Assembly: GCA_913009875.1 (NCBI GenBank)
Contig: CAJVYS010000003.1
Location: 13,528 to 77,527 of the forward strand
DNA: 64,000 bases
Reading direction: 5' to 3'
Source of the DNA: an uncultured Gammaproteobacteria bacterium
GTDB taxonomy: Bacteria; Pseudomonadota; Gammaproteobacteria; SZUA-152
Numbering within the stretch: position 1 is the stretch's first letter; every line of letters begins with the position of its first letter. The translations under genes and the position numbers were made by a program. Positions 2,270 to 60,942 of the stretch are shown here, piece after piece. The notes beneath the pieces are model-generated. The model did not search any database. It saw nothing but the letters and a program-made list of their open reading frames with translations, and was not told where the DNA came from.

Positions 2270-2892
2270 GGCCAGTGATCCTCCAGTTTGTCGCGCAGTG
2301 CCTGCACCGCGCGGGAATAATGTGTCTTGACGCTGCCAGCACTGATACCCATGGCCGTGGCCGTTTCCGCCACGCTCAGGCCCTCCCACTGACGCAACAA
2401 AAAAGCCTGCTGCTGGCGCAGGGGCAGCGCGTGCAGGGCGACATCCAGGGCGTCAATGGCGCACTGCAAACCCAGACTGCCATCCGGGCCGGGGGCATGG
2501 CTGGCAATGCTGGTCTCCAGCGGGTCGCCGCCCATCTCATCATCCGCCGCCCCCCGGGGAAAGCCCAGCCACTGCCGCCAACGATTGCGCACCCGGCTGC
2601 GCCGGTGCCAGTCGTGGATGGTGCTCTGCACGATGCGCTGAAACAAAGGCCCCCACTCCGCCTCGGGGCGGTCCGCATAGCCTTTCACCAGACGCAGCAT
2701 GGCATCCTGCACGATATCCAGGGCATCCTCACGGTTGCTGGTGGCAATCCAGGCCATGCGATAGGCCCGGCGTTCCATACCGGCGAGAAAACGATCCATT
2801 GCCTGCGTTGATTCCAGCCTGTGCTCTCCATCGAATCGTGCCTGCGCCCATTCTGGCCGCGAGGGGTAGTGGCTGTCTACGGCATCCCGCAT
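2266..2892 (-). CDS. RNA polymerase ECF (sigma-70 family, sigma-E-like) sigma factor
   Basis: Region-2 motif AWIATSNREDALDIVQDAMLRLV and region-4 HTH LSVAETATAMGISAGSVKTHYSRAVQALR. Start placed at MRDAVD (cat at 2890-2892). An internal start MDRFLAG at 2799 is also possible. Confidence 0.8.
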   Translation of the reverse strand: MRDAVDSHYPSRPEWAQARFDGEHRLESTQAMDRFLAGMERRAYRMAWIATSNREDALDIVQDAMLRLVKGYADRPEAEWGPLFQRIVQSTIHDWHRRSRVRNRWRQWLGFPRGAADDEMGGDPLETSIASHAPGPDGSLGLQCAIDALDVALHALPLRQQQAFLLRQWEGLSVAETATAMGISAGSVKTHYSRAVQALRDKLEDHWP

Positions 2893-2983
2893 CCGGGCTA
2901 TGTTTCTACTACTTAACGCGGCAGTCAGCCATTGGTTGACAGAGGAGTGTAAAATCCTGCTTGCAGCCCTAAAGAGAAAAACG

Positions 2984-3391
2984 ATGAGCACACAGAAACA
3001 GGCCTTCGCCGAACGACTCAACGACGCCTTGGACAATATCCGCTTCCCCGCGCTGGGCAATGGCCGCCTGAGCCGCTTGTCAGAGCTTCTCAGCACCCGG
3101 CAACTGGAAACCGACCGCTGGCTGAAGGGAGTGGATTTCCCCCCCACCTCGGTACTGGTCAAGCTGGCCGAGCTGACCCAGACGCGATCCAACTGGCTGC
3201 TTTCCGGCCAGGGTGCACCCTTCGAGCCGGGCAGACACCCACGCGGCACGGGCAAGATTCCGCCGGCGACGGGAAAGGAAAAGCTCAGCAAGGAAGCGCT
3301 GGAACTGGGACTGAAGTGGATGAAGCTGCCGCGACAGCAACGCCAAGCCATTGCGCGGGTGGTAGAGGAGTTGGTGGGGGATGAGGATTGA
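2984..3391 (+). CDS. HTH-type transcriptional regulator (cI/Xre-like DNA-binding protein), divergent from the ECF sigma gene
   Basis: ATG at 2984 (MSTQKQAFAERLNDAL...). The segment LSRLSELLSTRQLETDRWLKG... reads as an HTH. Divergently placed relative to the ECF sigma operon. Confidence 0.5.
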   Translation: MSTQKQAFAERLNDALDNIRFPALGNGRLSRLSELLSTRQLETDRWLKGVDFPPTSVLVKLAELTQTRSNWLLSGQGAPFEPGRHPRGTGKIPPATGKEKLSKEALELGLKWMKLPRQQRQAIARVVEELVGDED

Positions 3392-3403
3392 GGCGATTTT
3401 AGC

Positions 3404-3575
3404 TGTAGGAGCGGGCCATGCCCGCGATAACTATGCCTGAAAAACCTCTGTGGGAGCGGCTTCAGCCGCGAATAATGGCGGGCCCTATTCGCGGCTAAAG
3501 CCGCTCCCACAATTTCTAAAACTATAATTTCTGTGATGAAAAATAAACTATCGCGGGCATGGCCCGCTCCGATCT
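3404..3575. repeat. nested palindromic elements: family-1 REP (3448-3523) inside an outer palindrome (tgtaggagcgggccatgcccgcgataactat ... atagtttatcgcgggcatggcccgctcc)
   Basis: Outer arms at 3404-3436 and 3546-3575 are reverse complements. The inner copy matches the 90-168 and 12944-13013 elements. The outer arm resembles the element at 45122-45194. Confidence 0.7.
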
Positions 3576-3583
3576 CAAGATCG

Positions 3584-4243
3584 TCAAAAGCGCATCACCA
3601 GACCAGCAGTAATATCCGCCTGCATCAGCGATGAGCCGCCACTGACCGCGATATTGCAACCGCCACTGCCGCAGAACAGGCTGCCGCTGTAATAATTGAA
3701 GGGCAGAAGCAACCGGCCCTGCAGGTTCAGACCAAGGCGTTTGCTGAGCATCATCTCCATGCCCAGGCCGAAGTGCATGGAAAACCGGGTTTCGCTGGAA
3801 TAGCCCGAATCGCGTGGTGAAAAATGGGTGACGCCAAAGGTGCCCATGCCGTAGGTCCGCACTCTCCCTTCGTTGATCACCTTGGTGCCACCGAGCTGGT
3901 AGTGGTCCACGCGCATGTCGAACAGGTCTCGGCTCATACCGCTGAGGTCGGCCTTTTCCTCCACCGTGGTGTCGTAGGTGGAGAAGGAGAATCGCATCCG
4001 GGTGGTATGGCTGCCACGGTAAGGAAGGTCCAGGTTGACGCCATAGTCCGCGGTTTCTTTGATGCGCAGCTGGCCGTCACGGGTGTTGACGGTGCCACCG
4101 AAGATCCAGCCGGTGAAGGGCGTAATGGTGAATGCTTCCTGCGCAGCCATGGCCGGCGTACACAGTACGAATAGCACGCCAACAACAAGCCCTCTCCCAT
4201 CGAGGGAAAGGCCTATCCGTCCCAACGGGCTAAGCATCGCCAT
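3584..4243 (-). CDS. small outer-membrane beta-barrel protein (OmpW/OmpA-beta-barrel-like), terminal Phe
   Basis: Signal peptide MAMLSPLGRIGLSLDGRGLVVGVLFVLCTPAMA. Alternating hydrophobic beta-strand pattern, ends ...GLVMRF. Starts 13 nt after the ABC gene stop. Confidence 0.6.
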   Translation of the reverse strand: MAMLSPLGRIGLSLDGRGLVVGVLFVLCTPAMAAQEAFTITPFTGWIFGGTVNTRDGQLRIKETADYGVNLDLPYRGSHTTRMRFSFSTYDTTVEEKADLSGMSRDLFDMRVDHYQLGGTKVINEGRVRTYGMGTFGVTHFSPRDSGYSSETRFSMHFGLGMEMMLSKRLGLNLQGRLLLPFNYYSGSLFCGSGGCNIAVSGGSSLMQADITAGLVMRF

Positions 4244-6154: not shown

Positions 6155-6661
6155 GTGCCGATAGGACTGGCAGCCATACCAAGCCGGTACGACCAGATGT
6201 ATCCCAACGATGGACAAGCTCCAACTTCGGCCCATGTCCATCCCCTGAAAAAAAGTGAACCCGTGATCGCTAAGTTTCGCATATTGACCCTGCTGCTCTC
6301 TGCCGCTCTGCCTATTGCCCCGGCACAGACCAAGGCCGATGCGGAGGGCCAGTATGAACGGGGAGAAAAATTGTTCTCAACTTACTGTGTCCGCTGCCAC
6401 GGTAAGAATGCCGATGGCGAGGGCCGTATGGTTAAACGGCTGTATCGCAAACTGAAAACCCAACTACCCAGTAATTTCACTCTGGGTATTTATTCAGACC
6501 GCCCGGCAGAATACCTGCACAAGATCATTACCAATGGCGGTGAAAACCATTCCATGAGCAAGTACATGCCGCCATTCGGTGAAGAGCTGTCAGCCAAAAA
6601 TATCGATGACCTGGTGCACTTCATCAGGAAGACACCGGAAAAGTATGCTATCGACCCGTAA
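6155..6661 (+). CDS. class I mono-haem c-type cytochrome (true start probably internal, GTG 6263 or ATG 6197)
   Basis: Single CVRCH haem-binding motif. Signal-like segment KFRILTLLLSAALPIAPAQT. C-terminal MPPF..L..L..FI pattern typical of cytochrome c. Confidence 0.7.
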   Translation: MPIGLAAIPSRYDQMYPNDGQAPTSAHVHPLKKSEPVIAKFRILTLLLSAALPIAPAQTKADAEGQYERGEKLFSTYCVRCHGKNADGEGRMVKRLYRKLKTQLPSNFTLGIYSDRPAEYLHKIITNGGENHSMSKYMPPFGEELSAKNIDDLVHFIRKTPEKYAIDP

Positions 6662-24045: not shown

Positions 24046-24219
24046 TCGCTACGTCGGTTGCAGGGATGTTACAACACGAGACCCCGTTTCCCTGATCAAC
24101 AAAAAAACTGGCCTGGCGGTTGTTGCCTCGTTGAACCACATGCTGTGGCACCCCAGCCATGCTCAATCTTGGGAGTCTTGCCATTGCTTTACTCTATGCT
24201 TTGCTCTCTTTTGTCTAGC

Positions 24220-24315
24220 ATATCCCTGCATAGGTGCGGAATCAATTACTCTGACCCCATTGATTTCATATCCCTGCATAGGTGCGGAATCAATTACTCT
24301 GACCCCATTGATTTC
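24220..24315. repeat. perfect 48-bp tandem duplication (atatccctgcataggtgcggaatcaattactctgaccccattgatttc x2) in an AT-rich spacer
   Basis: Read directly. Two identical adjacent copies in a ~550-bp low-GC stretch immediately upstream of the truncated RND gene. Confidence 0.9.
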
Positions 24316-24624
24316 TGGCCAACTCAAGAATAATTCCAGGAAAAAGAAAAAGGCAAGACTTGACCCCGCGCCTGGTTCCGATCCTGCGTATAAAAGCAGA
24401 TAGAAAGAAGCAGATAAAAGGGCTCTGACCCCTTTTATCCCGCTTTTATCCCGTTCACAAGATATATGGGCACTGGGGATTTTCCGAGCTTAGCTGATCC
24501 CCAAAAAAAACTGAAACCGAAAAAGATATTTTCAATACCGCTTCACCACTCCTCAATCAACGGGCTTGTCCAACAGACGGTTCAGATTGTGGTTCGTTCC
24601 TCACACAATCTAACCTTATTCGTT

Positions 24625-26811
24625 ATGTTCCCGCCAGCCCTGGCCGTCTCGGAGGAGGTGGACAAGGCTCTGGCGCAACTGCGCCTGCCGCCGGATACCC
24701 GTCTGGAGAAGTTCTACGACCAGGCCGAGATCATCGGCTTGGCCTATCGCAACATGCGCAACAATCTGCTGGTGGGGGCGCTGCTGGCGATTATTGCCGT
24801 GGTCTGGGTGCTAGGCCGCAACCGCGCCAGCCTGGTGATCGCCGCCAGTTTCCCGCTGGTGGTGCTGGCCACCTTCGCCGCCATGGGCGTCTTCGATCTG
24901 GGCCTGAACCTGATGACCCTCGGCGCGTTGACGGTGGCCATCGGCCTGATCGATGACGATGCCGTGGTGGTGATGGAAAATATCGACCGCCACCGGGCAA
25001 TGGGCAAGACGCCGCGGCATGCTGCGCTGGACGGTACCCGCGAAGTGCTGGCCGCGGACGTCGCCGGCACCCTGACCGTGCTGGCGGCCTTCGTGCCGCT
25101 GGTGCTGGTGACCGGTCTGGCGGGTCGCCTGTTTCAACCCTTCGGCCTCACCTTTGGTTTTATTTTGCTGTTTTCCCTGTTGGTCTCACTGACACTGATT
25201 CCGCTGGCGTCGGTCTATTGGGCGCCGCACAAGCGGACGAATGCACCCCACATGACCGCCGGGGCACGCTGGATCCACTGGCTGGGCGTGTGGAATCTGC
25301 GTCTGCTGGACAAGCTGCTTCGGCATCGGGGCAAGACCCTGTCCGTCACCGCGTTGTTGCTTGTTGCCAGCCTGGCGCTGCTGATCTTCAACCCGGCGCG
25401 CCTGTTGCCGCTGCTGGATGAAGGCAGTTTGCTGTTGAGCTATCAGCTGGCACCGGGTACCTCCTTGTCCGAAAGCAACCGCGTGGGTGATGAGCTGGAG
25501 GCACGCCTGCTGGCAATGCCGGCGGTCAAGGCAGTCTTCCGCCGTACCGGCTCTCCCGAGTCATCTTTTTATATCGAAGGGCCGGATGAAGGTGAACTGG
25601 TGGTTCGACTGGACAAGAAAAAGGCACCGGATCCCTTGGCGGTGAAGGCCGACATCGACCGCCTGTTGGCCGGGACACCGGGCGTTATCGGCCGGGTCAA
25701 CGAGCCGACCACGGAGAAACTGGACGAATCCTTTTCCGGCCTGCCGGCCCTGTTCGGCATCACCCTTTATGGCAACGATCTGCAACAACTCTACGCCGCC
25801 GCGGCCAAAGTGGAAGCGGCGGCGGGAAAGGTCGCGGGATTGGCCAATGTCGTCAATAACACCAAAATTCCGGTGGACCAGATCCGCGTAGCCATCGACC
25901 GCACGGCACTGGCCCGTTTTGACGTCAGCGCGCAAACCGTGGCGCAGGCTGTGCGCACCGCCATGCAAGGTGATCGCATCGGCCAGGTGATTATTGAGCA
26001 GCAGCCCGTCGATATCATTCTGCGCTACGCCAATGCTCGGCGCGACAGCCTGAGCGCACTCAAGCAGGTACAGATACCCGGCCCCGCCGGTCGGCTGATT
26101 CCACTGTCACAACTTGCGCGTATCGACACCCTGTCGAGCTACCCCATCATCGAGCACCAGCACGGCTTGCGGGCGCTGACGCTGACCGCCGAGATCGATG
26201 GCAATCCTTATGCCGTGATGCGCAGTCTGGACCAGGCATTGACCGCGCTACAACTGCCCGAGACTGTGCAGTGGGGTTACACGGGTGAATATGGTCAACT
26301 GATGAAAACGGGCGGACAGGTTCTGTGGGTGCTGCTGGCCTCGGCCTTGTTGGTCTACGGCATCATCGCCATCCAGCTCGGCAACCTGCTGGACCCGGCG
26401 GTGGTGCTGGCCAAGCTGCCGCTGGATTTCATGGGTGCGGCGCTGGCGCTGTTCATCACCCGCCAACACCTTGACCTCACCGTGGCCATCGGTTTTATCA
26501 CCCTCATCGGGGTGGCGACCAACAATGGCATCATGCTACTCACCTTTACCCGCAACTTTCGCCGTCAGGGTTTGGATGCCGTGGCGGCCATACGCGAGGC
26601 GGTGCGCCTGCGCACCCGCCCCATGCTACTGACCCATCTGACCACGCTGTTAGCCCTGATCCCCGCGGTCCTGGGGTTGGGAGAGGGGCCGCAACTGCTG
26701 CAACCGCTGGGCATTATGCTGTTCGGCGGCCTCACGGCGGGCACACTCCTGACGCTGAATCTGTTACCGGTGATTTATGTCGCAACTGAACGCTGGCGGC
26801 GGGCATCGTGA
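24625..26811 (+). pseudogene. 5'-truncated RND efflux permease (CzcA/AcrB superfamily) lacking the N-terminal ~300 residues
   Basis: Homology begins abruptly at ...PPALAVSEEVDK..., the PN2/TM2 region (GALLAIIAVVWVLGRNRASLVIAASFPL...GLIDDDAVVVMENIDRH), and continues to the normal C-terminus. The remaining length (~730 aa) is short of a ~1030-aa RND protein. The ORF's first 53 codons come from the AT-rich scar. Confidence 0.7.
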
Positions 26812-51936: not shown

Positions 51937-52908
51937 GTGAAGAGATTCAATAATATTCTTTGCGTGGTGACACCAGGGGCGGGATGCAAAACCGCGTTGG
52001 AACGTGCGGTCACGCTGGCTGAAAACAACCAGGCGAGCCTGACGGTTATCGACGTGACCGAGCGCGTAACTGCCGGTATTGGAATGCCGGAAGGCGGTCC
52101 GATCTCTGCAGACCTGCAGGCAGCAATCGTCAGTGCGCGTGAACAGGAACTGGACTCCCTGGTTGAGCCTTACCGCCAGCGGATCAACGTGCAAGCCAGG
52201 GTGTTGATCGGCACACCGTTTTTGGAAATTATTCGAGAGATACTGCGCAACGGGCATGATCTGGTGATCAAAACCGCTGAACGCTGGGATTGGCAGGACC
52301 GCTTATTCGGCAGCAACGATATGCACCTGTTACGTAAGTGTCCATGTCCGATGTGGATCACGCTGCCGGAGGAAAAGCCCAATTACCGCCGGATCATGGC
52401 CGCGGTCGATTTTGACCCGTGGCTGGAGGGTGCCGGGGAGAATGATCTGAACCGGCTAATCCTCGAGCTGGCGAGTTCGATGGCGCTGTCCGATTTCGCT
52501 GAACTGCATGTGGTCCATGCCTGGGAGCCCATGACGGAGACTATGATAAGAGTGTTCAGCAGCGACTTGTCCGAAGAGCAAATCGCTGCCAACGTGAATC
52601 GTGAACGGCGCGACCACCAGGCCCAGCTCGAACGGCTGACCGGCAGGTTGCGCGACTGGATCGGCACAGAGGCTTACGATTATCTGTTACCGAGGCTTTA
52701 TCTCTGCCAGGGCAGCGCACGCAAGGAAATTCCGGCGCAGGCCAGACGGATTGACGCCGATCTTGTCGTCATGGGCACCGTGGCCCGCACTGGTTTGGCC
52801 GGATTCTTTATGGGCAACACTGCGGAAACGATTCTCAACCAGATCGATTGCGCCGTGCTTGCGGTCAAGCCGCCCGGCTTTGTAACGCCGGTCACATTGG
52901 AGGGCTGA
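51937..52908 (+). CDS. tandem-domain universal stress protein (UspE-like) embedded in the mrp operon
   Basis: Two USP domains (ILCVVTPGAG... and IMAAVDFDP...), with VVMG.....G....GNTAE near the C-terminus. Starts 2 nt after the mrpE stop. Confidence 0.75.
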   Translation: MKRFNNILCVVTPGAGCKTALERAVTLAENNQASLTVIDVTERVTAGIGMPEGGPISADLQAAIVSAREQELDSLVEPYRQRINVQARVLIGTPFLEIIREILRNGHDLVIKTAERWDWQDRLFGSNDMHLLRKCPCPMWITLPEEKPNYRRIMAAVDFDPWLEGAGENDLNRLILELASSMALSDFAELHVVHAWEPMTETMIRVFSSDLSEEQIAANVNRERRDHQAQLERLTGRLRDWIGTEAYDYLLPRLYLCQGSARKEIPAQARRIDADLVVMGTVARTGLAGFFMGNTAETILNQIDCAVLAVKPPGFVTPVTLEG

Positions 52909-52925: not shown

Positions 52926-53204
52926 ATGCAGACCCTTTTCCTCATATTAGCGTTGTTTCTACTGCTGAATCTTGGCGCCGGGATGTGGCGGGTACTTCGT
53001 GGTCCGACCGCCGCCGATCGCATGTTGGCCGCACAGTTATTCGGTACCACGGCGGTGGCCATACTGCTGTTGCTCGCGCAGGTCGATGGCAATGCGGCCC
53101 TGCGCGATGTGGCGTTGGTGTTTGCCCTGTTGGCCGCGGTAACGGCAGTGGCCTTTGTGCGGCGGGCCTGGCCAGACCAGGAAACGGACCATGATGCTGG
53201 GTGA
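52926..53204 (+). CDS. mrpF: Mrp antiporter subunit F (MnhF/MbhB-like)
   Basis: 92 aa, three TM. The LRGPTAADRMLA motif is characteristic of MnhF. Confidence 0.75.
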   Translation: MQTLFLILALFLLLNLGAGMWRVLRGPTAADRMLAAQLFGTTAVAILLLLAQVDGNAALRDVALVFALLAAVTAVAFVRRAWPDQETDHDAG

Positions 53205-53490
53205 TTACCTCACCGTGGTACTGCTGATCGCCGGGAGTATCTTCTTTCTGGCGGGTACCCTGGGCCTGCTGCGATTTCCGGATGTCTATACCCGTCTGCA
53301 TGCATTGACCAAGGCCGACAACGTCGGTCTGGGACTGATGGTGGCCGGGCTCGCCCTGCAGGCGGAATCCTGGACGGTGGTGGGCAAGCTGCTGATGATC
53401 TGGCTGTTGGTACTGCTGGCGGGTGCCAGTGTCGCCCACCTGGTGGCCGCAGCGGCGCGGCAAAGAGGCATCAAGCTGTGGAAACGATGA
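53191..53490 (+). CDS. mrpG: Mrp antiporter subunit G (MnhG/MbhC-like)
   Basis: DYLTVVLLIAGSIFFLAGTLGLLRFPDVYTRLHALTKADNVGLGL matches the MnhG/PhaG pattern. Overlaps mrpF. Confidence 0.8.
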   Translation: MMLGDYLTVVLLIAGSIFFLAGTLGLLRFPDVYTRLHALTKADNVGLGLMVAGLALQAESWTVVGKLLMIWLLVLLAGASVAHLVAAAARQRGIKLWKR

Positions 53491-53628
53491 CGTGCATGGA
53501 CGCACTCGCCGCTCATTGGCATCCATGCCACCACGGCAGGGCCTGCCCCATGAGCGTAGCGAGTGTTTTGGGCATTTGCACATCCCTGTGCATCATTTCG
53601 CGGGCGCATGGAGCGCAGGAGCGATGAG
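53488..53628. repeat. intercistronic palindromic repeat unit (long form), from the mrpG TGA to the ATG of the next gene
   Basis: tgacgtgcatggacgcac-[87-bp insert]-tttcgcgggcgcatggagcgcaggagcgATGAgc. Related units at 54583-54700 and 56457-56748. Confidence 0.85.
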
Positions 53629-53902
53629 CCTGTTGCAGTCTGCATTCGATGTCCTGCTGGGGTCTGCCTTGTTGTGGCTGGCTTGGCGGGCGCTGGCGAG
53701 CCCGGATTTATTCAGGGCCATTGTGCTGTTCATCGCCTTCGGGCTGTTGATGGCGCTGGCCTGGGTTCGGCTCGACGCGCCGGATATTGCCCTGGCCGAG
53801 GCGGCTATCGGCGCGGGACTGACGGGTGCCCTGCTGCTGGCAGCACTGACAAGGCTCGAGTCTAAGAGTGATACAAAATCAGCCCATGAAAAAGACCAAT
53901 AA
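53624..53902 (+). CDS. MbhD-like small membrane protein (MnhB N-terminal-domain homologue)
   Basis: APDIALAEAAIGAGLTGALLL motif typical of MbhD/MrpA-C/MnhB-N domains. ATG supplied by the repeat unit. Confidence 0.6.
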   Translation: MSLLQSAFDVLLGSALLWLAWRALASPDLFRAIVLFIAFGLLMALAWVRLDAPDIALAEAAIGAGLTGALLLAALTRLESKSDTKSAHEKDQ

Positions 53903-54599
53903 ACCGAAATCCATAACTGAAAACGGTGAAAGAGAGGCACCGTTTCGGTTGCTGCTCGCGGTGCTCCTGTCAGTTCTGGCCGTGGGGTTGGGTTATGCGG
54001 TGCTGTCCCTTCCATCGCAGGCCCCGGGTTTGAGCGACTATGTGGCGGAAAACCTCGAAACCAGCGGTGTCAGTAATCCAGTCACTGCGGTGCTGCTTAA
54101 CTTCCGTGGTTACGATACCTTGCTGGAACTGGGGGTGCTGTTGCTGGCCTTGCTTGGGGTCTGGTCACTCGGTGCTGTACCGAAACGCCACGAGTCATCC
54201 CCTGGGCCGGTGCTGGATATGCTGTCGCGCCTGCTGGTTCCTTTACTGATCCTGGTTGCCGGCTATCTATTATGGGTCGGCGCCCATGCGCCGGGCGGTG
54301 CCTTTCAGGCCGGTTCGCTGCTGGCGGCGGCGGGGGTGTTGCTGTTGCTGACGGGGTGGCGACTCGGCACAGGGTTTTCCGGCCTGCTACTGCGCATTAC
54401 CCTGGTAGCCGGCCTGGGGGTCTTTGTGGTGGTGGGTGTTGTGTTGATACTGGCGGGCGGGCGCCTGCTGGAATACCCCCTGTCATTCGCGGGTGCGCTG
54501 ATACTGCTGATCGAGGCGGCAGCGACTGTGTCCATCGGCGTGACCCTGGCTGCCCTGTTCCTGGGTGGCCGCCCAGAGGCAGGAGCGCAGGAGCGATGA
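53886..54599 (+). CDS. mrpB: Mrp antiporter subunit B (MnhB/MbhE-like)
   Basis: MnhB domain ...NPVTAVLLNFRGYDTLLELGVLLLALLG... Start ambiguous (53868 or 53886) and overlaps the upstream ORF by 17-35 nt in another frame. Confidence 0.65.
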   Translation: MKKTNKPKSITENGEREAPFRLLLAVLLSVLAVGLGYAVLSLPSQAPGLSDYVAENLETSGVSNPVTAVLLNFRGYDTLLELGVLLLALLGVWSLGAVPKRHESSPGPVLDMLSRLLVPLLILVAGYLLWVGAHAPGGAFQAGSLLAAAGVLLLLTGWRLGTGFSGLLLRITLVAGLGVFVVVGVVLILAGGRLLEYPLSFAGALILLIEAAATVSIGVTLAALFLGGRPEAGAQER

Positions 54600-54700
54600 C
54601 GTGCATGGATGCACTAAGTTCGCGGGCGCATGGAGCGCAGGAGCGATGACGTGCATGGATGCACTAAGTTCGCGGGCGCATGGAGCGCAGGAGCGATGAG
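54583..54700. repeat. intercistronic repeat: partial unit plus two tandem 50-bp short units
   Basis: ggagcgcaggagcgatgac + 2 x gtgcatggatgcactaagttcgcgggcgcatggagcgcaggagcgatga(c/g). It encodes the last residues of mrpB (GAQER*) and the ATG of mrpC. Confidence 0.85.
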
Positions 54701-55004
54701 CCCTGCTTTCCTCTATGCACTGGTGGGGGTGGGTCTGTTCACTCTGGGTCTGTACGCCTTGATCGTCCACACGCATTTACTGCGTAAGATCCTGGCCATC
54801 AATGTGATGGCCAGCGGGGTGTTCCTGGTGTTGGTGGCACTGGCGGTCCGTACCCAGGGGGCAGCGCCGGATCCAGTGCCGCACGCCATGGTGATTACCG
54901 GCATCGTGGTTGCCGTATCGGCCACCGCCCTGGCGTTGGCGCTGATGCTGCGGGTACAGGCGGCAACAGGCCGGGCTGAGCTTGCCGAAGAGCCGTTGGA
55001 ATAA
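54696..55004 (+). CDS. mrpC: Mrp antiporter subunit C (NuoK-like, MnhC/MbhG)
   Basis: Three TM, 102 aa. LYALIVHTHLLRKILAINVMASGVFL matches the MnhC/NuoK pattern. Confidence 0.8.
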   Translation: MSPAFLYALVGVGLFTLGLYALIVHTHLLRKILAINVMASGVFLVLVALAVRTQGAAPDPVPHAMVITGIVVAVSATALALALMLRVQAATGRAELAEEPLE

Positions 55005-55010
55005 CACTCG

Positions 55011-56459
55011 ATGTCTATGTGGATACCAGGTGTCCACTGGGGGGTGATGGCTATTGTGTTGCCGCTGGCCGGGGCCATAAGCTGTTTCTTGTGGCCGCGA
55101 CGCACCGTCCCGCTGGGTCTGGTTACTGCGCTGGGTATTGTCGCTTGCGTGGCCGGACTGGGCTGGCGGGTGGTGGAGCAGGGTGCGCAACGCTATGCGG
55201 TCGGAGGCTGGGGTGCGCCATTGGGTATCGACCTCTATGCAGATGGTTTGAGTCTGCTGATGCTAATGGTGGCGGCGGTGGTGGGGCTGGGCATCAGCGT
55301 CTATTCCAGCGGCTATTTTAAACCAGACAGGGCGACGCATTTTTGGCCATTGTGGCTGTTTCTGTGGGCCGCGCTGAATGCTTTGTTTCTGTCCGCGGAT
55401 ATCTTCAATCTTTATGTCACCCTGGAACTGCTGGGGCTGGCGGCGGTGGCGTTGGTCGCGTTAGCCGGGGGGGCGGATGCCTTGACCGGGGCCATGCGCT
55501 ACTTGTTGGTCAGTCTGCTGGGTTCGTTGTTCTATCTGCTGGGTGTCGCGCTGCTCTATCACAGTTTTGGCAGCGTCGATATCGCGATATTGGCAGAGCG
55601 GGTGGAACCGTCCCCCGCAGTGTGGGCAGCGATGGGATTGATGAGTGCCGGTTTGCTGCTCAAGACCGCGTTGTTTCCGCTGCACTTCTGGTTGCCGCCA
55701 GCCCATGCCAGTGCCCCGGCGCCAGTGAGCGCGCTGTTGTCAGCACTGGTGGTGAAGGCATCGTTTTATATTCTGCTGCGTCTGTGGCTGGAGATTTTCC
55801 CGCTGACCAACGCCGTGCTTGGTCAGTTGCTGGGTCTGCTCGGCGCGGCCGCTGTGCTCTGGGGCGGGCTTCAGGCGTTACGCCAGACGCGGCTCAAAAT
55901 GTTGATCGCCTATTCGACCGTGGCGCAACTGGGTTATCTGTTTCTGGCTTTTCCGCTGGCGAACATCATCGGTTGGACGGGTGCGCTCTATATGCTGTTA
56001 TCCCACGCCGCGGCCAAGACGGCCATGTTCATGGCGGCCGGCAACATCCTGTATTTCGGCGGACATGATCGCATTGCGGATCTTGATCGTGTCGTGCAGC
56101 GTCTACCCCTGACGATTACCGCCTTTGCCTTGGCGGGTATCAGCATCATGGGCCTGCCGCCCAGTGGCGGATTTATCGCCAAATGGCTGCTGCTGGAGGC
56201 CGCCATCCGTTCCGATCAGTGGTGGTGGGGGATCATCCTGATCCTCGGTGGACTGCTGTCTGCCGCCTGGGTCTTTAAAGTGGTCGGTTATGCCTTTACC
56301 CAGTCCGAGGTACCCCACCAAGCCAGAGCGGTACCTGCCACCATGGAGTGGACCGCGCTGGTCATGGCCGTGGTCGCCATCCTGCTGGGCCTGTTTGCCC
56401 CCTGGCCGCTGGCATTAATGGAAATCGGTTTACCCTTTAGCGGGGAAGATCCCGGATGA
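55011..56459 (+). CDS. mrpD: Mrp antiporter subunit D (NuoN/NuoM-like antiporter-type subunit)
   Basis: ~14 TM proton-pumping module: TLELLGLAAVALVAL, HAAAKTAMFMAAGN and WLPPAHASAPAPVSALL motifs. Confidence 0.8.
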   Translation: MSMWIPGVHWGVMAIVLPLAGAISCFLWPRRTVPLGLVTALGIVACVAGLGWRVVEQGAQRYAVGGWGAPLGIDLYADGLSLLMLMVAAVVGLGISVYSSGYFKPDRATHFWPLWLFLWAALNALFLSADIFNLYVTLELLGLAAVALVALAGGADALTGAMRYLLVSLLGSLFYLLGVALLYHSFGSVDIAILAERVEPSPAVWAAMGLMSAGLLLKTALFPLHFWLPPAHASAPAPVSALLSALVVKASFYILLRLWLEIFPLTNAVLGQLLGLLGAAAVLWGGLQALRQTRLKMLIAYSTVAQLGYLFLAFPLANIIGWTGALYMLLSHAAAKTAMFMAAGNILYFGGHDRIADLDRVVQRLPLTITAFALAGISIMGLPPSGGFIAKWLLLEAAIRSDQWWWGIILILGGLLSAAWVFKVVGYAFTQSEVPHQARAVPATMEWTALVMAVVAILLGLFAPWPLALMEIGLPFSGEDPG

Positions 56460-56748
56460 CGTGCATGGATGCACTAATTTCGCGGGCGCATGGAGCGCAG
56501 GAGCGATGACGTGCATGGATGCACTCGCCGCTCATTGGCATCCATGCCACCACGGCAGGGCCTGCCCCATGAGCGTAGCGAGTGTTTTGGGCATTTGCAC
56601 ATCCCTGTGCATCATTTCGCGGGCGCATGGAGCGCAGGAGCGATGACGTGCATGGATGCACTCGCCGCTCATTGGCATCCATGCCACCACGGCATTTGCA
56701 CATCCCTGTGCATCATTTCGCGGGCGCATGGAGCGCAGGAGCGATGAG
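56457..56748. repeat. intercistronic repeat array: short unit, long unit, and long unit with a 36-bp internal deletion
   Basis: 56461-56510 (50 bp), 56511-56647 (137 bp), 56648-56748 (101 bp). Array starts at the mrpD TGA and ends ...gagcgATGAgc (start of the next gene). Confidence 0.85.
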
Positions 56749-58240
56749 CTGGAATGCCGCGCTGCCGCTACTCGTTCTCGCCAGCTCCCTGTTACCGGGA
56801 CTGGTGATTTTCTTTCTGCCAGAGGAGCGTGTTGCAACCCGTACCACCCTGAACCTGACCGGTGCAGTACTCAAACTGGTGTTGGTCGGGGTGATGATCT
56901 GGGGCGTTTTTCACGGCCACCATTATGAGACCCGTCTGCCCCTGTTACCCGGGCTGGATCTGGTACTGCGTGCCGACCCCCTGTCGATGCTGTTTGTGGT
57001 GCTTTCCAGTGTCCTGTGGCTTGTGACGACCGTTTATGCCATCGGCTACCTGGAGGGCTCGCCTAACCGCAGCCGCTTTTTCGGATTTTTCAGCCTGTGT
57101 GTGACCGCAACGGTCGGTGTGGCGTTGGCCGGCAACCTGATTACCTTTTTGCTGTTTTACGAGCTGCTGACCCTGGCCACCTATCCGCTGATCGTGCACC
57201 GTGGTACCGACGAGGCGCGGCGCGCAGGTCGTACCTACCTGAACTATACGGTTGCAGGCGGCGCCCTGTTGCTGATCGGCACGGTATGGCTGTACACCCT
57301 CACCGGCACCCTGGAGTTCACAGCACGTGGTTTTTTATCCAGCCTGGATGAAACACACTACGGGGTTCTGGTCGTCATATTTGTACTCTTGATCGCTGGT
57401 CTGGGTGTAAAGGCCGCACTGATTCCGCTGCATGGCTGGCTGCCGCAGGCCATGGTGGCGCCCGCACCCGTGAGCGCATTATTGCATGCGGTGGCGGTGG
57501 TGAAGGCGGGTGCCTTCGGTATCGTGCGCGTGGTCCACGATGTCTATGGCATCCAGTTTGCCGCCAGTCTGGGAGTGACATTGCCACTGGCAATAGTGGC
57601 GGCGGCGACCATTATTTATGGTTCGATGCGAGCATTGTTCCAGGATGATCTGAAACGCCGGCTGGCGTTCTCCACGGTCAGCCAGGTTGCCTATATTGTC
57701 CTCGGCATCGCCATCGCCGGCCCGATCGCGACCATCGGCGGCCTGGTCCATCTGGTGCACCAGGGCGTGATGAAAATCACCCTGTTTTTCTGCGCCGGCA
57801 ATCTCGCCGAGACTTTAGGAATTCACAAAGTCAGCGAAATGAACGGGGTCGGACGGCGCATGCCCTGGACCATGGTCGCCTTTACTATCGCTGTCTTTGG
57901 CATGATTGGTGCGCCACCCTTGGCCGGTTTTGTCAGTAAATGGTATCTGGGACTGGGGGCATTGGACGCCGGGCAGAGCTGGGTGATTATTATCCTGGCT
58001 GGTAGTAGCCTGCTCAACGCGGCGTATTTCCTGCCTATTCTGTACGCCGCCTGGTTCAAGGCACCTCCCGATACCTGGCCCGCCGAGCGCTCCTTCGGGC
58101 GGCGTGAGACGGCCTGGACGCTACTGGCGCCCCCGGTGGTGACCGCTTTGCTGACACTGGCTGCGGGGTTGCTGGCATCGGCACCGTTTAGTCCGTTGCA
58201 ATGGGCGCGTTTCATCACGACTCTGGGATACGCATCATGA
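56744..58240 (+). CDS. second NuoL/M/N-family antiporter-like subunit (MrpD/MrpA-like paralogue)
   Basis: GNLITFLLFYELLTLATYPLIVHRGTDEARRAGRTYL, WLPQAMVAPAPVSALLHAVAVVKAGAFG and HQGVMKITLFFCAGN motifs. ATG supplied by the repeat. Confidence 0.8.
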   Translation: MSWNAALPLLVLASSLLPGLVIFFLPEERVATRTTLNLTGAVLKLVLVGVMIWGVFHGHHYETRLPLLPGLDLVLRADPLSMLFVVLSSVLWLVTTVYAIGYLEGSPNRSRFFGFFSLCVTATVGVALAGNLITFLLFYELLTLATYPLIVHRGTDEARRAGRTYLNYTVAGGALLLIGTVWLYTLTGTLEFTARGFLSSLDETHYGVLVVIFVLLIAGLGVKAALIPLHGWLPQAMVAPAPVSALLHAVAVVKAGAFGIVRVVHDVYGIQFAASLGVTLPLAIVAAATIIYGSMRALFQDDLKRRLAFSTVSQVAYIVLGIAIAGPIATIGGLVHLVHQGVMKITLFFCAGNLAETLGIHKVSEMNGVGRRMPWTMVAFTIAVFGMIGAPPLAGFVSKWYLGLGALDAGQSWVIIILAGSSLLNAAYFLPILYAAWFKAPPDTWPAERSFGRRETAWTLLAPPVVTALLTLAAGLLASAPFSPLQWARFITTLGYAS

Positions 58241-59574: not shown

Positions 59575-59607
59575 TTAACACCAACGCTCGGTTCGCAAGA
59601 GCGACAT

Positions 59608-59976
59608 TCAGAGATAATGGGAGATAACGGGATGAATTTTCAAACACAAAGAAGCGCTGCGAAAGTCGCGCAGACGATCCAATGCAGTCGCGTGAGTGAG
59701 CTCACTCATCCGTTTAATGTTGCGGAGTTTCCATTGGATTGCAGGCAATTCCTGGATATGGTCGAAGGGCATCAGGCTCCAGTCGGGCTCGCCTTGCTTA
59801 ATCGACAGCAGGAACTTGCGCTCATTTTCTGTTAGCGCTGTGCGTACCCACGAAAATAGTTGCTTTCGGGCGGCTTCGAGTTCGTCCAGCTCGATTGCAT
59901 GGGCTGTCATGCCCGCAAAGTGGTGAGTGTAGAGCTGTTCAATGGTTTTGGCATTCGGAGCCAACAGTTCTGCCAT
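59608..59976 (-). CDS. hypothetical protein at the edge of an AT-rich islet
   Basis: 122-aa ORF with lower GC than the flanks. No family recognised. Confidence 0.35.
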   Translation of the reverse strand: MAELLAPNAKTIEQLYTHHFAGMTAHAIELDELEAARKQLFSWVRTALTENERKFLLSIKQGEPDWSLMPFDHIQELPAIQWKLRNIKRMSELTHATALDRLRDFRSASLCLKIHPVISHYL

Positions 59977-60054
59977 GGGGCGGTGATGTCCAGTAAGGTA
60001 AACAGCGAATCAGCAAATCCACCTGGGCTCGATAGCGTTCGTTGACAGGCATGA

Positions 60055-60942
60055 TGGCTCCTTATTGGTGATTCGTGTCTGCTACGACCAGGATATATTT
60101 TAAATATCCATGGTACCGTAATCAAAAATCGTCTCTATGAAACGGAGAGACAAAGCAAAGCATACGGCACGTTACGAACAATTATCTTCATCGGAAAACA
60201 AGGCAAACAGATCCCTGTAATAAGCACAAACCTGACATTAAGCGCCGCTGAAATTGTTGCTCGGTTACAGAAGAGATGGGTAGAAGAGAACGGATTCAAA
60301 TATATGGATGAACATTACAATATTGATCTATTGACCACCTATGAAACAGAAGAGGCCCCCGACAAAATAATGAGCAGGCCTAACCCAGATCGTAAAGCCG
60401 CGAACAGAGCCATAGCAGAAAAGAAAACGGAGCTCAAAGAATTAAAAGAAAAATATGCCACGAAACTAAATGAAACAAAAGATAAAGACGAGCTGACCAT
60501 CGCCGCGTTTGAAGAGCAAGAAAAAGAGCTAAAATTGGAAATAAAAACTGCCGAGATGGAGCTGGGGTTACTGGAGTTAAAGCGAAAAGAGATCCCCAGT
60601 AAGGTAGAAAGCAACCTGAAAGAGGAAAGCGTTATCAGCTCTCAAAAACGAAGACTGTTCATCAACTTGGTAAAGACCATGAACTACAATTGTGAAAAAT
60701 GGCTGCAGCTCATTTTTTGTCAATTTCACCCGAAAGCGGATGAAACCTTAAGCCTGATCCGGCATCTCTTGACCCAGCCAGGTCGCATTCGCCAGCGGGG
60801 CCAGATCCTCGAAGTTGAGTTGGAAAGGCTCGATAGTGGGGTACAGGCCAACACGCTAGATAAAGTGTTGGAAAAGTTCAGAGAAGACAATCACTTAAAT
60901 CTTCCTGATGGTCGGAAACTGGTGATTTGGCAAGCGCTGTGA
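60055..60942 (+). pseudogene. transposase remnant: C-terminal DDE-region fragment with no start codon (open frame from 60055; first ATG only at 60304)
   Basis: ...GKQIPVISTNLTLSAAEIVARLQKRWVEENGFKYMDEH... carries the Y-x2-RW-x-VE-x2-FK signature of IS4/IS5-type DDE transposases. The upstream part is missing. AT-rich context. Confidence 0.5.

Follow-up and report, generated by a model that had tools for sequence, protein, structure and literature searches.

The mrp/mbh-type antiporter operon in a 64-kb stretch of DNA from an uncultured gammaproteobacterium (contig CAJVYS010000003.1; the whole analysed stretch is called the window below) contains six units of a short palindromic element, and these units of 50, 101 or 137 bp occupy exactly three junctions between its genes. 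The units probably represent a variant, found in marine Gammaproteobacteria, of the design known from mycobacterial interspersed repetitive units (MIRUs). They belong to a family of two-hairpin elements of approximately 50 nt, of the type of repetitive extragenic palindromes (REPs) and MITEs (miniature inverted-repeat transposable elements), and appear to be kept in the operon as coupled relay mini-cistrons, which connect the stop codon of the upstream gene with the start codon of the downstream gene.

The gene order of the operon is mnhE, a usp gene, mrpF, mrpG, mbhD, mbhE/mnhB, a nuoK-like gene and three mrpD genes. The arrays are located between mrpG and mbhD (J1), between mnhB and the nuoK-like gene (J2) and between the first two mrpD genes (J3). 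The flanking genes were assigned by Pfam matches to PhaG_MnhG, MbhD, MbhE/MnhB, Oxidored_q2 and Proton_antipo_M. The three arrays of the mrp operon described in the first-pass annotation of this DNA, which was made from the sequence alone, were found again at the same junctions. The reported copy numbers of one, two with a partial unit, and three are also correct: J1 contains one 137-bp unit, J2 contains an 18-nt copy of the unit tail followed by two 50-bp units, and J3 contains units of 50, 137 and 101 bp. The 18-nt tail copy precedes the J2 units and encodes the end of mnhB (..GAQER*), as had been noted earlier for this gene under the name mrpB. The left flank, which had been described as the same in all arrays, is cgATGAcg at J1 and J2 and ggATGAcg at J3. 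The 31-nt tail of the unit occurs six times in the window with zero mismatches, while none is expected from 100 shuffles; the head palindrome also occurs six times, and TRF (Tandem Repeats Finder) scores the J2 array at 100% identity. A covariance model trained on 15 distinct units and run with the filters off over all 64 kb revealed no unit copy outside positions 53488–56747.

The lengths of all units are of the form 3n+2, which corresponds to 17 codons for 50 bp, 34 codons for 101 bp and 46 codons for 137 bp. In each unit, no stop codon interrupts the frame that begins at the ATG of one ATGA and closes at the TGA of the following one. Owing to this length and the open frame, each array is an unbroken chain of −4 stop/start overlaps leading from the upstream to the downstream gene. 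One frame (MTCMDAL...GAQER*) runs through every unit; thus, the repeated peptides of the open reading frame (ORF) track, which had been set aside as artefacts, belong to the frame that links stop to start. The chain is kept by 36 of the 37 units of 13 orthologous operons. A unit of the chain opens with the NTG of an NTGA (alternatively, at a TGATG) overlapping the previous stop codon, and its terminal TGA overlaps the next start codon; the resulting putative relay ORFs are 54, 102, 105, 138 or 141 nt long. The unit length changes are 51, 36 and 3 nt, all of them multiples of three. Frame and overlap persist even in units that are old and degenerate. The first such unit of J2 has a TGATG (−1) overlap in the loci L003 and L004 and an ATGA in L019. 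The last unit of J1, likewise degenerate, is 3 nt shorter in L003, where it forms a −4 ATGA overlap, and also in L004 and L025, where it ends with GTGATG. Only −4 junctions are occupied in this clade, and junctions with a spacer or a long overlap are free.

An exact-match scan for the tail, covering one genome per species, revealed it in four other species, always in the orthologous operon and at the same junctions (loci L001–L004 are carried by the assemblies JAKIUN01, JAESUN01, DRKN01 and JALTPW01). A metagenome scan added eight more mrp loci with units. Units of 50, 101, 134 and 137 bp were found in the orthologous operons in arrays of one to three. In L016, with 73% nucleotide identity, all three junctions are unoccupied, and J2 and J3 are ATGA overlaps. 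In L005 (about 80–84%), J3 alone is filled, and J1 and J2 are bare ATGA. In L014 (about 88–90%), J2 and J3 are filled, and the empty J1 has the sequence GTGA. All three junctions are filled in the window, in L001/L026 and in L003; in L019, J2 and J3 are filled and the contig stops short of J1. Occupancy is therefore nested across the operons, from none through J3 and J2 with J3 to all three, and the direct overlaps that the first-pass annotation had proposed for comparison do exist in the relatives, with a GTGA at J1 of L014 as a variant.

The left flank of J1 in L003, L004 and L025 is GTGA, the same as in the empty site of L014, and the right end of the array is ATGA. This difference indicates that the downstream ATG is borne by the element and is not a target duplication, in agreement with the earlier claim that the unit brings its own Shine–Dalgarno (SD) sequence and ATG. 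Target-site duplication was also rejected for the AT-rich copies described below, in which the left side reads TTGA and the right side ACCA. Turnover of the copy number is fast. Over an approximately 800-nt 3′ segment of the first mrpD gene, L001 and L026 show 100% identity, yet they differ in copy number at J2 and J3; L003 and L004 differ at J1 and J2. The earlier description of an amplifiable intercistronic element agrees with these differences between near-identical strains.

Coupling between termination and reinitiation is most efficient at distances of −4 to +3 nt and is nearly gone at a spacing of 20–30 nt, and −4 overlaps are enriched among the subunits of heteromeric complexes (PMC10666635, PMC12548453). 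Mrp is such a heteromeric complex. Since coupling is lost by 20–30 nt, an insert of 50–288 nt would uncouple the genes unless it were translated and the overlaps were re-created; the retained 3n+2 lengths and overlaps are what a coupling constraint predicts. We propose that a sub-lineage of the family ending with ...AGGAGCGATGA settled in the −4 (ATGA/GTGA) overlaps of the mrp operon. A unit could stay in such junctions because it rebuilds the overlap that it interrupts: it starts after the TGA, has a length of 3n+2 and an open frame, and carries its own SD and ATGA. The ribosome that ends the upstream gene would restart on the unit, translate a throw-away peptide of 17, 34 or 46 codons, stop at the next ATGA and restart on the following unit or on the downstream gene, so that an array would act as a series of translationally coupled mini-cistrons. 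The tail hairpin is predicted to pair the SD and the ATG, and the hand-over therefore probably depends on the incoming ribosome. Arrays may grow and shrink by recombination or slippage between units, and the long forms may have arisen when an inverted copy nested inside a unit. Hairpins whose loops are identical at the two ends, the lack of inverted termini and, in the AT-rich copies, of a duplication, a constant ..TGA left flank and a strict strand bias resemble features of single-strand elements of the IS200/IS605 or REP/RAYT type (PMC3201880, PMC3333891). Spread by reinsertion nearby, or by microhomology at CGATGA, followed by selection, is suggested.

The same 50-nt two-hairpin module was found at twelve metagenome loci without mrp genes nearby, most of them on contigs with 38–45% GC. 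The consensus of these copies is ..TTGA CGTGCATGGATGCAC TAATG TCGCGGGCGCATGGAGCGCAGGAGCGAC CA.., and they end with GCGACCA, GCGACGA or GCGACTA, never with GCGATGA. Ordinary intergenic DNA surrounds them (after accA, before ispD or apbE, or between convergent genes), and they are co-oriented with the upstream gene wherever that gene is known. All informative copies are in the sense orientation to the flanking genes (about nine of nine independent sites), as are all mrp copies. The shared left flank is only ..TGA (TAA in L010 and L017), which means that the element is not ATGA-specific; within −4 junctions, only ATGA-ended copies were found. In the species-genome and metagenome scans, the ATGA-ended subtype occurs in mrp operons only, at four independent sites, and it is present at none of the many other ATGA junctions of the genomes carrying mrp arrays. 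This restriction suggests local spread within the operon and selection, not general homing.

A general-type copy (TGAC-GCACAGGGACGTGC-TAATGTCGCGGG...) at positions 6500–6600 of L019, on the minus strand, forms an in-frame insertion of roughly 33 codons in valS. The insertion follows ..CKPVLNSE, and its counterpart in the L003 orthologue is 48 nt shorter and degenerate. Together with the intergenic relatives and a unit after CTGA in a spacer of L016, this copy contradicts the earlier proposal that the element targets ATGA junctions. Between accA and tilS in L027 (40% GC), three tandem 99-bp units and one longer composite of the non-ATGA form are located at about 3540–4055 in element orientation (about 2883–3401 in stored locus coordinates); a further module (CCTCGGCTYTGGCTTC..CTACCTC) is common to the composite and the L019 valS insert. 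In L024 (about 1440–1590, element orientation), the module splits one of the arms of a host palindrome. In the AT-rich hosts L024, L007, L011, L013, L020 and L023, the module is inside another host repeat (..TCCGCAAATGAACGCAAA.. / ..TTTGCGTT^CATTTGCGGA), which looks like a second repeat family. The hit in L009 looks like a chance match in coding DNA, and L015, on a contig with 60% GC, contains only a partial variant. The unit was not found in viral contigs, phage records or plasmid records. Several other classes of element were considered and rejected. There are no CRISPR spacers, the intervening sequence of L027 being identical between repeats; RYYYAAC/GTTRRRY ends of integron attC sites were not seen by reading of the sequence; and the core motifs of hammerhead and other small ribozymes and of a tRNA-like ACCA end are absent.

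Several observations weigh against the relay proposal. The third J3 unit of L019 has a 1-nt deletion, and its frame stops 13 nt into the second mrpD gene. Open frame alone is weak evidence in such GC-rich sequence, as 23%–54% of shuffles are also open, and 25 of the 27 distinct units have a second open frame. The case thus comes down to about five indel events, four of which keep the frame (p about 0.05), and to the retained overlaps. The unit sequence is 95–100% conserved, against 73–90% for the flanking coding DNA; this is far beyond what a throw-away relay needs and hints at an extra constraint, such as protein binding or RNA structure. Confinement of the ATGA subtype to a single operon is unusual for a mobile element, and among the 52 ORFs of the window there is no Y1 transposase, only a weak Transposase_29 fragment. 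The operon of L016, which has no units at J1–J3, carries an ATGA-type unit at positions 1883–1990, in the 95-nt mnhE/mrpF spacer after CTGA. A frame through it ends at a TAG 4 nt before the mrpF ATG, and the unit is outside any −4 chain. This unit is 100% identical to units of L014 and L003, despite 27% divergence of the operons, and the host belongs to a distant genus with 47% GC. Vertical descent is insufficient to explain such identity, which points to recent horizontal movement.

Starting with a head hairpin (GTGC-ATGGAT-GCAC), the unit continues through a linker and a two-tier tail hairpin (UCGC..GCGC-AUGGA-GCGC..GCGA) to AGGAG, CG and ATGA; it can be described by the loose pattern of a CANGGANG hairpin, N(3–90) and GCGGGCGCATGGAGCGC. 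The extra 51 nt of the 101-bp form are a full-length inverted copy of the unit between head and tail, and the 137-bp form has 36 further nt at the equivalent point of the inverted copy. The insert of approximately 87 bp reported earlier is therefore present, and it is composed of a 51-nt inverted unit copy and 36 nt. Short forms look like a left end and a right end with nothing between them, and long forms carry a ‘cargo’, as in REPINs and bacterial interspersed mosaic elements (BIMEs). All units of L001 share CATCCCTGCC and CAATTCG, while all long units of the window share CATCCATGCC and CATTTCG; unit variants are partly homogenised within one genome. The three helices are 96.5% paired over 44 distinct copies, with 54 double-change cells versus 13.8 in shuffles, and the covariation signal collapses in slid controls; the underlying alignment was fitted to the model, which biases these values towards covariation. 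Folding predicts that the SD region is largely paired in front of all three downstream genes (P(unpaired) 0.11–0.29), and in the 101-bp form the tail is predicted to pair with the nested inverted copy.

The explanation that survives best beside the relay is that the units serve mainly as a regulatory RNA module, under selection, within the mrp transcript, the relay ORF being secondary. They would contain candidate binding sites of the CsrA/Rsm type, or processing or stabilising hairpins that set the expression levels of the segments. The Rsm/CsrA motif is CANGGANG and RUACARGGAUGU (PMC6849547). The loops of the first hairpin are CAUGGAUG, CAGGGAUG or CAUGGACG, and the core loop is GCGC-AUGGA-GCGC, followed by AGGAG at the SD. 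By sequence match, CAUGGAUG, CAUGGAGC and CAGGAG in every unit are candidate sites for CANGGANG. Covarying helices with fixed loops, the sense orientation of all informative copies and the high conservation of the unit fit such a module, as does the restriction of intact ATGA-type copies to mrp operons, including the independent site in the distant genus of L016. On the other hand, the GGA-loop hairpins of the long forms are inverted too, the mRNA there reading CAUCCAUG, which points to recognition at the DNA level. The sense-strand fold energies are only 1–2 standard deviations better than those of shuffles (z −0.9 to −1.8), and Rfam gave no relevant match, either for the window region (E ≤ 10) or for nine non-mrp loci (E ≤ 1). 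Copy number that varies freely between near-identical strains is a poor fit for a tuned regulator. We regard a mainly regulatory role as rather unlikely, and it is compatible with the relay.

It is less probable still that the unit is an ordinary REP-type extragenic repeat, in which the ATGA-to-ATGA geometry is incidental and has no translational role. Its relatives do lie at ordinary intergenic sites, its palindromic hairpins and inverted pairs are those of REP/BIME elements, and the open frame is statistically unremarkable; moreover, the module is also 50 nt long in the non-coding copies, so that the 3n+2 length is partly inherited. Such a repeat does not account for the GCGATGA end, which is found only in copies at operon junctions and is replaced by GCGACCA, GCGACGA or GCGACTA elsewhere, or for the 3n+2 rule kept by all derived length classes but one. 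Retention of −4 or −1 overlaps by degenerate units, the occupation of −4 junctions only, with spacer and long-overlap junctions left free, and the lack of further copies in the 64 kb also argue against it.

A similarly doubtful extension of the relay proposal, to which the L016 unit lends support, is that the 50-nt unit is an actively and horizontally moving element homing to the mrp operons of different genera, and that the host uses it as a copy-number-dependent translational relay or attenuator. Each added unit, with its GGA-loop hairpins as putative CsrA/Rsm sites, would lower or gate the hand-over of ribosomes. If this is true, the length of the array would set the stoichiometry of the antiporter subunits and could change quickly between strains.

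We consider it very improbable that genuine small proteins rich in Cys and His, such as accessory antiporter subunits that bind metal, are encoded by the units. A gene caller did annotate a 34-aa ORF in JGI metagenome data: with the 46-aa peptide as query, a single called gene of 34 aa was retrieved, present on two further contigs, and among 5.8 billion proteins just one 34-aa cluster matches the unit peptide. There is also a slight synonymous excess in the long forms, with a crude dN/dS of 0.35 in the 105-nt class and 0.6 in the 138-nt class; the ratio is opposite in the 54-nt class (about 3), and these counts are not independent. Synonymous and nonsynonymous changes are thus near neutral and inconsistent between the length classes, and the peptide does not look selected. 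Its Cys and His positions vary (C to S, C to Y, H to L/R/Q, HH to PR), no Pfam or PDB match to the unit peptides was found, the same nucleotides are conserved in non-coding copies, and copy number and length differ between strains. The frame is kept, and the peptide is not.

The arrays are real: an origin as short-read assembly artefacts is extremely improbable, since arrays with differing copy numbers are present at the same junctions in 12 other assemblies from different projects (13 assemblies with the window), their flanking genes are intact and in frame, and an independent assembly of the same sequence (L028, ENA ERZ909563, 1976 bp) reproduces the J2 array exactly and the start of J3. The ends of the L028 contig fall within arrays, in J2 at its start and in J3 at its end, for which reason the exact copy numbers in long arrays are uncertain. 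It can be noted that these repeats break short-read assemblies.

The first-pass annotation could not place the unit in a named repeat family. A named analogue does exist in the mycobacterial MIRU (Supply et al. 1997, via PMC12548453, PMC3184786 and PMC2734929), which is the closest known system by likeness in design. According to these descriptions, MIRUs are units of 40–100 bp in tandem arrays whose copy number varies between strains; they are located between the genes of polycistronic operons, are co-oriented with them, and the ends of the unit ORF overlap the flanking stop and start codons (−4). Tetranucleotide direct repeats at filled sites and empty sites in relatives are reported as well. 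The mrp units share all of these features, with a repeat that is element-borne. The length classes differ by internal gaps in both systems, and MIRU insertion has been proposed to have little effect on downstream expression. The differences concern the host, which is Mycobacterium for MIRUs and Gammaproteobacteria here, and the distribution: about 41 loci per genome are described for MIRUs, whereas ATGA-ended units are found in one operon only, and genome-wide dispersal at tens of loci was not seen in the 64-kb window, the four species genomes and seven metagenome loci. In addition, the mrp family has relatives in non-coding DNA and within a gene, its hairpins covary, and inverted copies are nested in its long forms. 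A literature search for elements like MIRUs in Gammaproteobacteria found none, and coupling junctions go unmentioned in a 2024 review on the MITEs of prokaryotes.

With REP, BIME and REPIN elements (PMC3333891, PMC3116915, PMC8266576), the units share short GC-rich imperfect palindromes, an extragenic, intercistronic location and mosaic arrays of alternating orientation, the 101-bp form resembling a REPIN in that it consists of two inverted units. Within operons, classical REPs modulate the stability of mRNA (same sources), and they are not known as translated relay cistrons. Unlike elements of the REP/RAYT system (RAYT, REP-associated tyrosine transposase), the units have no GTAG 5′ tetranucleotide, their 5′ flank being TGAC, TGAT or TAAT; no RAYT gene was seen in the window, and the mrp units are strictly sense.

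The hairpin MITEs derived from the IS200/IS605 group, also called palindrome-associated transposable elements (PMC3201880, PMC5027513, PMC10055086), are similar in having a hairpin near each end with similar loops (CATGGA), a ‘cargo’ between the left and right hairpins, no terminal inverted repeats, and strand-specific insertion next to a constant short left flank (..TGA at the ATGA, GTGA, CTGA and TTGA sites of the units); likewise, no target duplication is seen in the AT-rich unit copies. They differ in that the left hairpin of the unit is 1 nt from its boundary, too close for a guide sequence of the IS608 type to fit; the window contained no TnpA partner, and the unit boundaries are ambiguous by 2–3 nt. 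Rickettsia palindromic elements and other in-frame intragenic MITEs (PMC10969869) illustrate that selfish palindromes survive in translated sequence only if the frame is kept, and the valS copy of L019 is such a case; the Rickettsia elements fuse into host proteins, whereas the mrp units are separate cistrons with their own start and stop. The engineered bicistronic design (bioRxiv 10.1101/2023.02.09.527918; PMC12548453) also uses a short leader ORF, within which the SD of the following gene lies and whose end is a stop/start overlap, and the translating ribosome melts the local structure and hands over. In contrast to the units, these are single cassettes at the 5′ end of a gene, and they are not natural, repeated or mobile.

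The coordinates of the arrays, of the putative relay ORFs and of the flanking genes are listed in the table.

Table. Features of the three occupied junctions of the mrp operon (window coordinates)
Feature	Position	Strand	Remarks
mrpG (PhaG_MnhG_YufB)	53155..53490	+	TGA 53488-53490 overlaps ATG 53487-53489 of the first putative relay ORF
J1 array, one 137-bp unit	53491..53627	+	head hairpin GTGCATGGACGCAC, tail GCGCATGGAGCGCAGGAGCGATGA
J1 putative relay mini-ORF, 46 codons (MTCMDALAAHWHPCHHGRACPMSVASVLGICTSLCIISRAHGAQER*)	53487..53627	+	TGA 53625-53627 overlaps mbhD ATG 53624
Inverted unit copy nested in the J1 137-bp form, interrupted by 36 nt	53508..53595	-	covariance-model hits 53539-53595, 53508-53538
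mbhD-like gene	53624..53902	+	unit tail supplies start ATG
mbhE/mnhB gene	53886..54599	+	last 18 nt (54582-54599, GGAGCGCAGGAGCGATGA) are exactly the unit tail
J2 array, two identical 50-bp units	54600..54699	+	units 54600-54649, 54650-54699
J2 putative relay ORFs, 17 codons each (MTCMDALSSRAHGAQER*)	54596-54649, 54646-54699	+	
nuoK-like (mrpC) gene	54696..55004	+	start ATG from unit tail
mrpD-like gene 1	55011..56459	+	TGA 56457-56459 overlaps ATG of the first J3 putative relay ORF
J3 array	56460..56747	+	50 bp (56460-56509), 137 bp (56510-56646), 101 bp (56647-56747)
J3 putative relay ORFs	56456-56509 (17 aa), 56506-56646 (46 aa), 56643-56747 (34 aa)	+	
Inverted unit copy nested in the J3 137-bp unit, interrupted by 36 nt	56527..56614	-	covariance-model scan
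Full inverted unit copy in the J3 101-bp form	56662..56715	-	47 bits over full length; all three helices kept by compensatory changes
mrpD-like gene 2	56744..58240	+	unit tail supplies start ATG

Some further features of the operon and of the window can be noted. The native 3′ end of mnhB in L005 (1195–1228; ..GGGGCCGCAGCGATGA, ..AGPQR*) already resembles the unit tail. In the window, the native end has been replaced by an exact copy of that tail (54582–54599), and the tail of the L003 J3 unit (GGAGTGCCGCAGCGATGA) looks like the exchange in reverse. The mbhD and mbhE/mnhB genes, which are separate and overlapping in the window, read as a single fused ORF of 348 codons in L001 (4595–5641) and L026 (7717–8763). 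A tandem universal-stress-protein (Usp) gene at 51937–52908, between mnhE and mrpF, is absent in L014 and L016. In the window, the third mrpD-like gene is the last of the operon; a 584-aa antiporter-like gene, which comes next in L005, L016 and L002, is missing from 59575–60942, where a small minus-strand ORF and the weak Transposase_29 fragment (60304–60942) are located instead. At a distance from the operon, a perfect 2 × 48-bp tandem duplication (24219–24315) lies just 5′ of an AcrB-family ORF (24466–26811), which appears to be truncated at the N terminus, as it aligns only to profile positions 293–1019.

MIRUs have been used for typing tuberculosis strains for decades. The existence of a second, unrelated-looking family with a coupled mini-cistron design suggests a general way for tiny selfish repeats to live in operons that depend on coupling. 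The natural series of zero, one, two and three units at the same junction would be usable for measuring the hand-over of ribosomes, and it could show whether the length of an array tunes the ratios of the subunits of a membrane complex.

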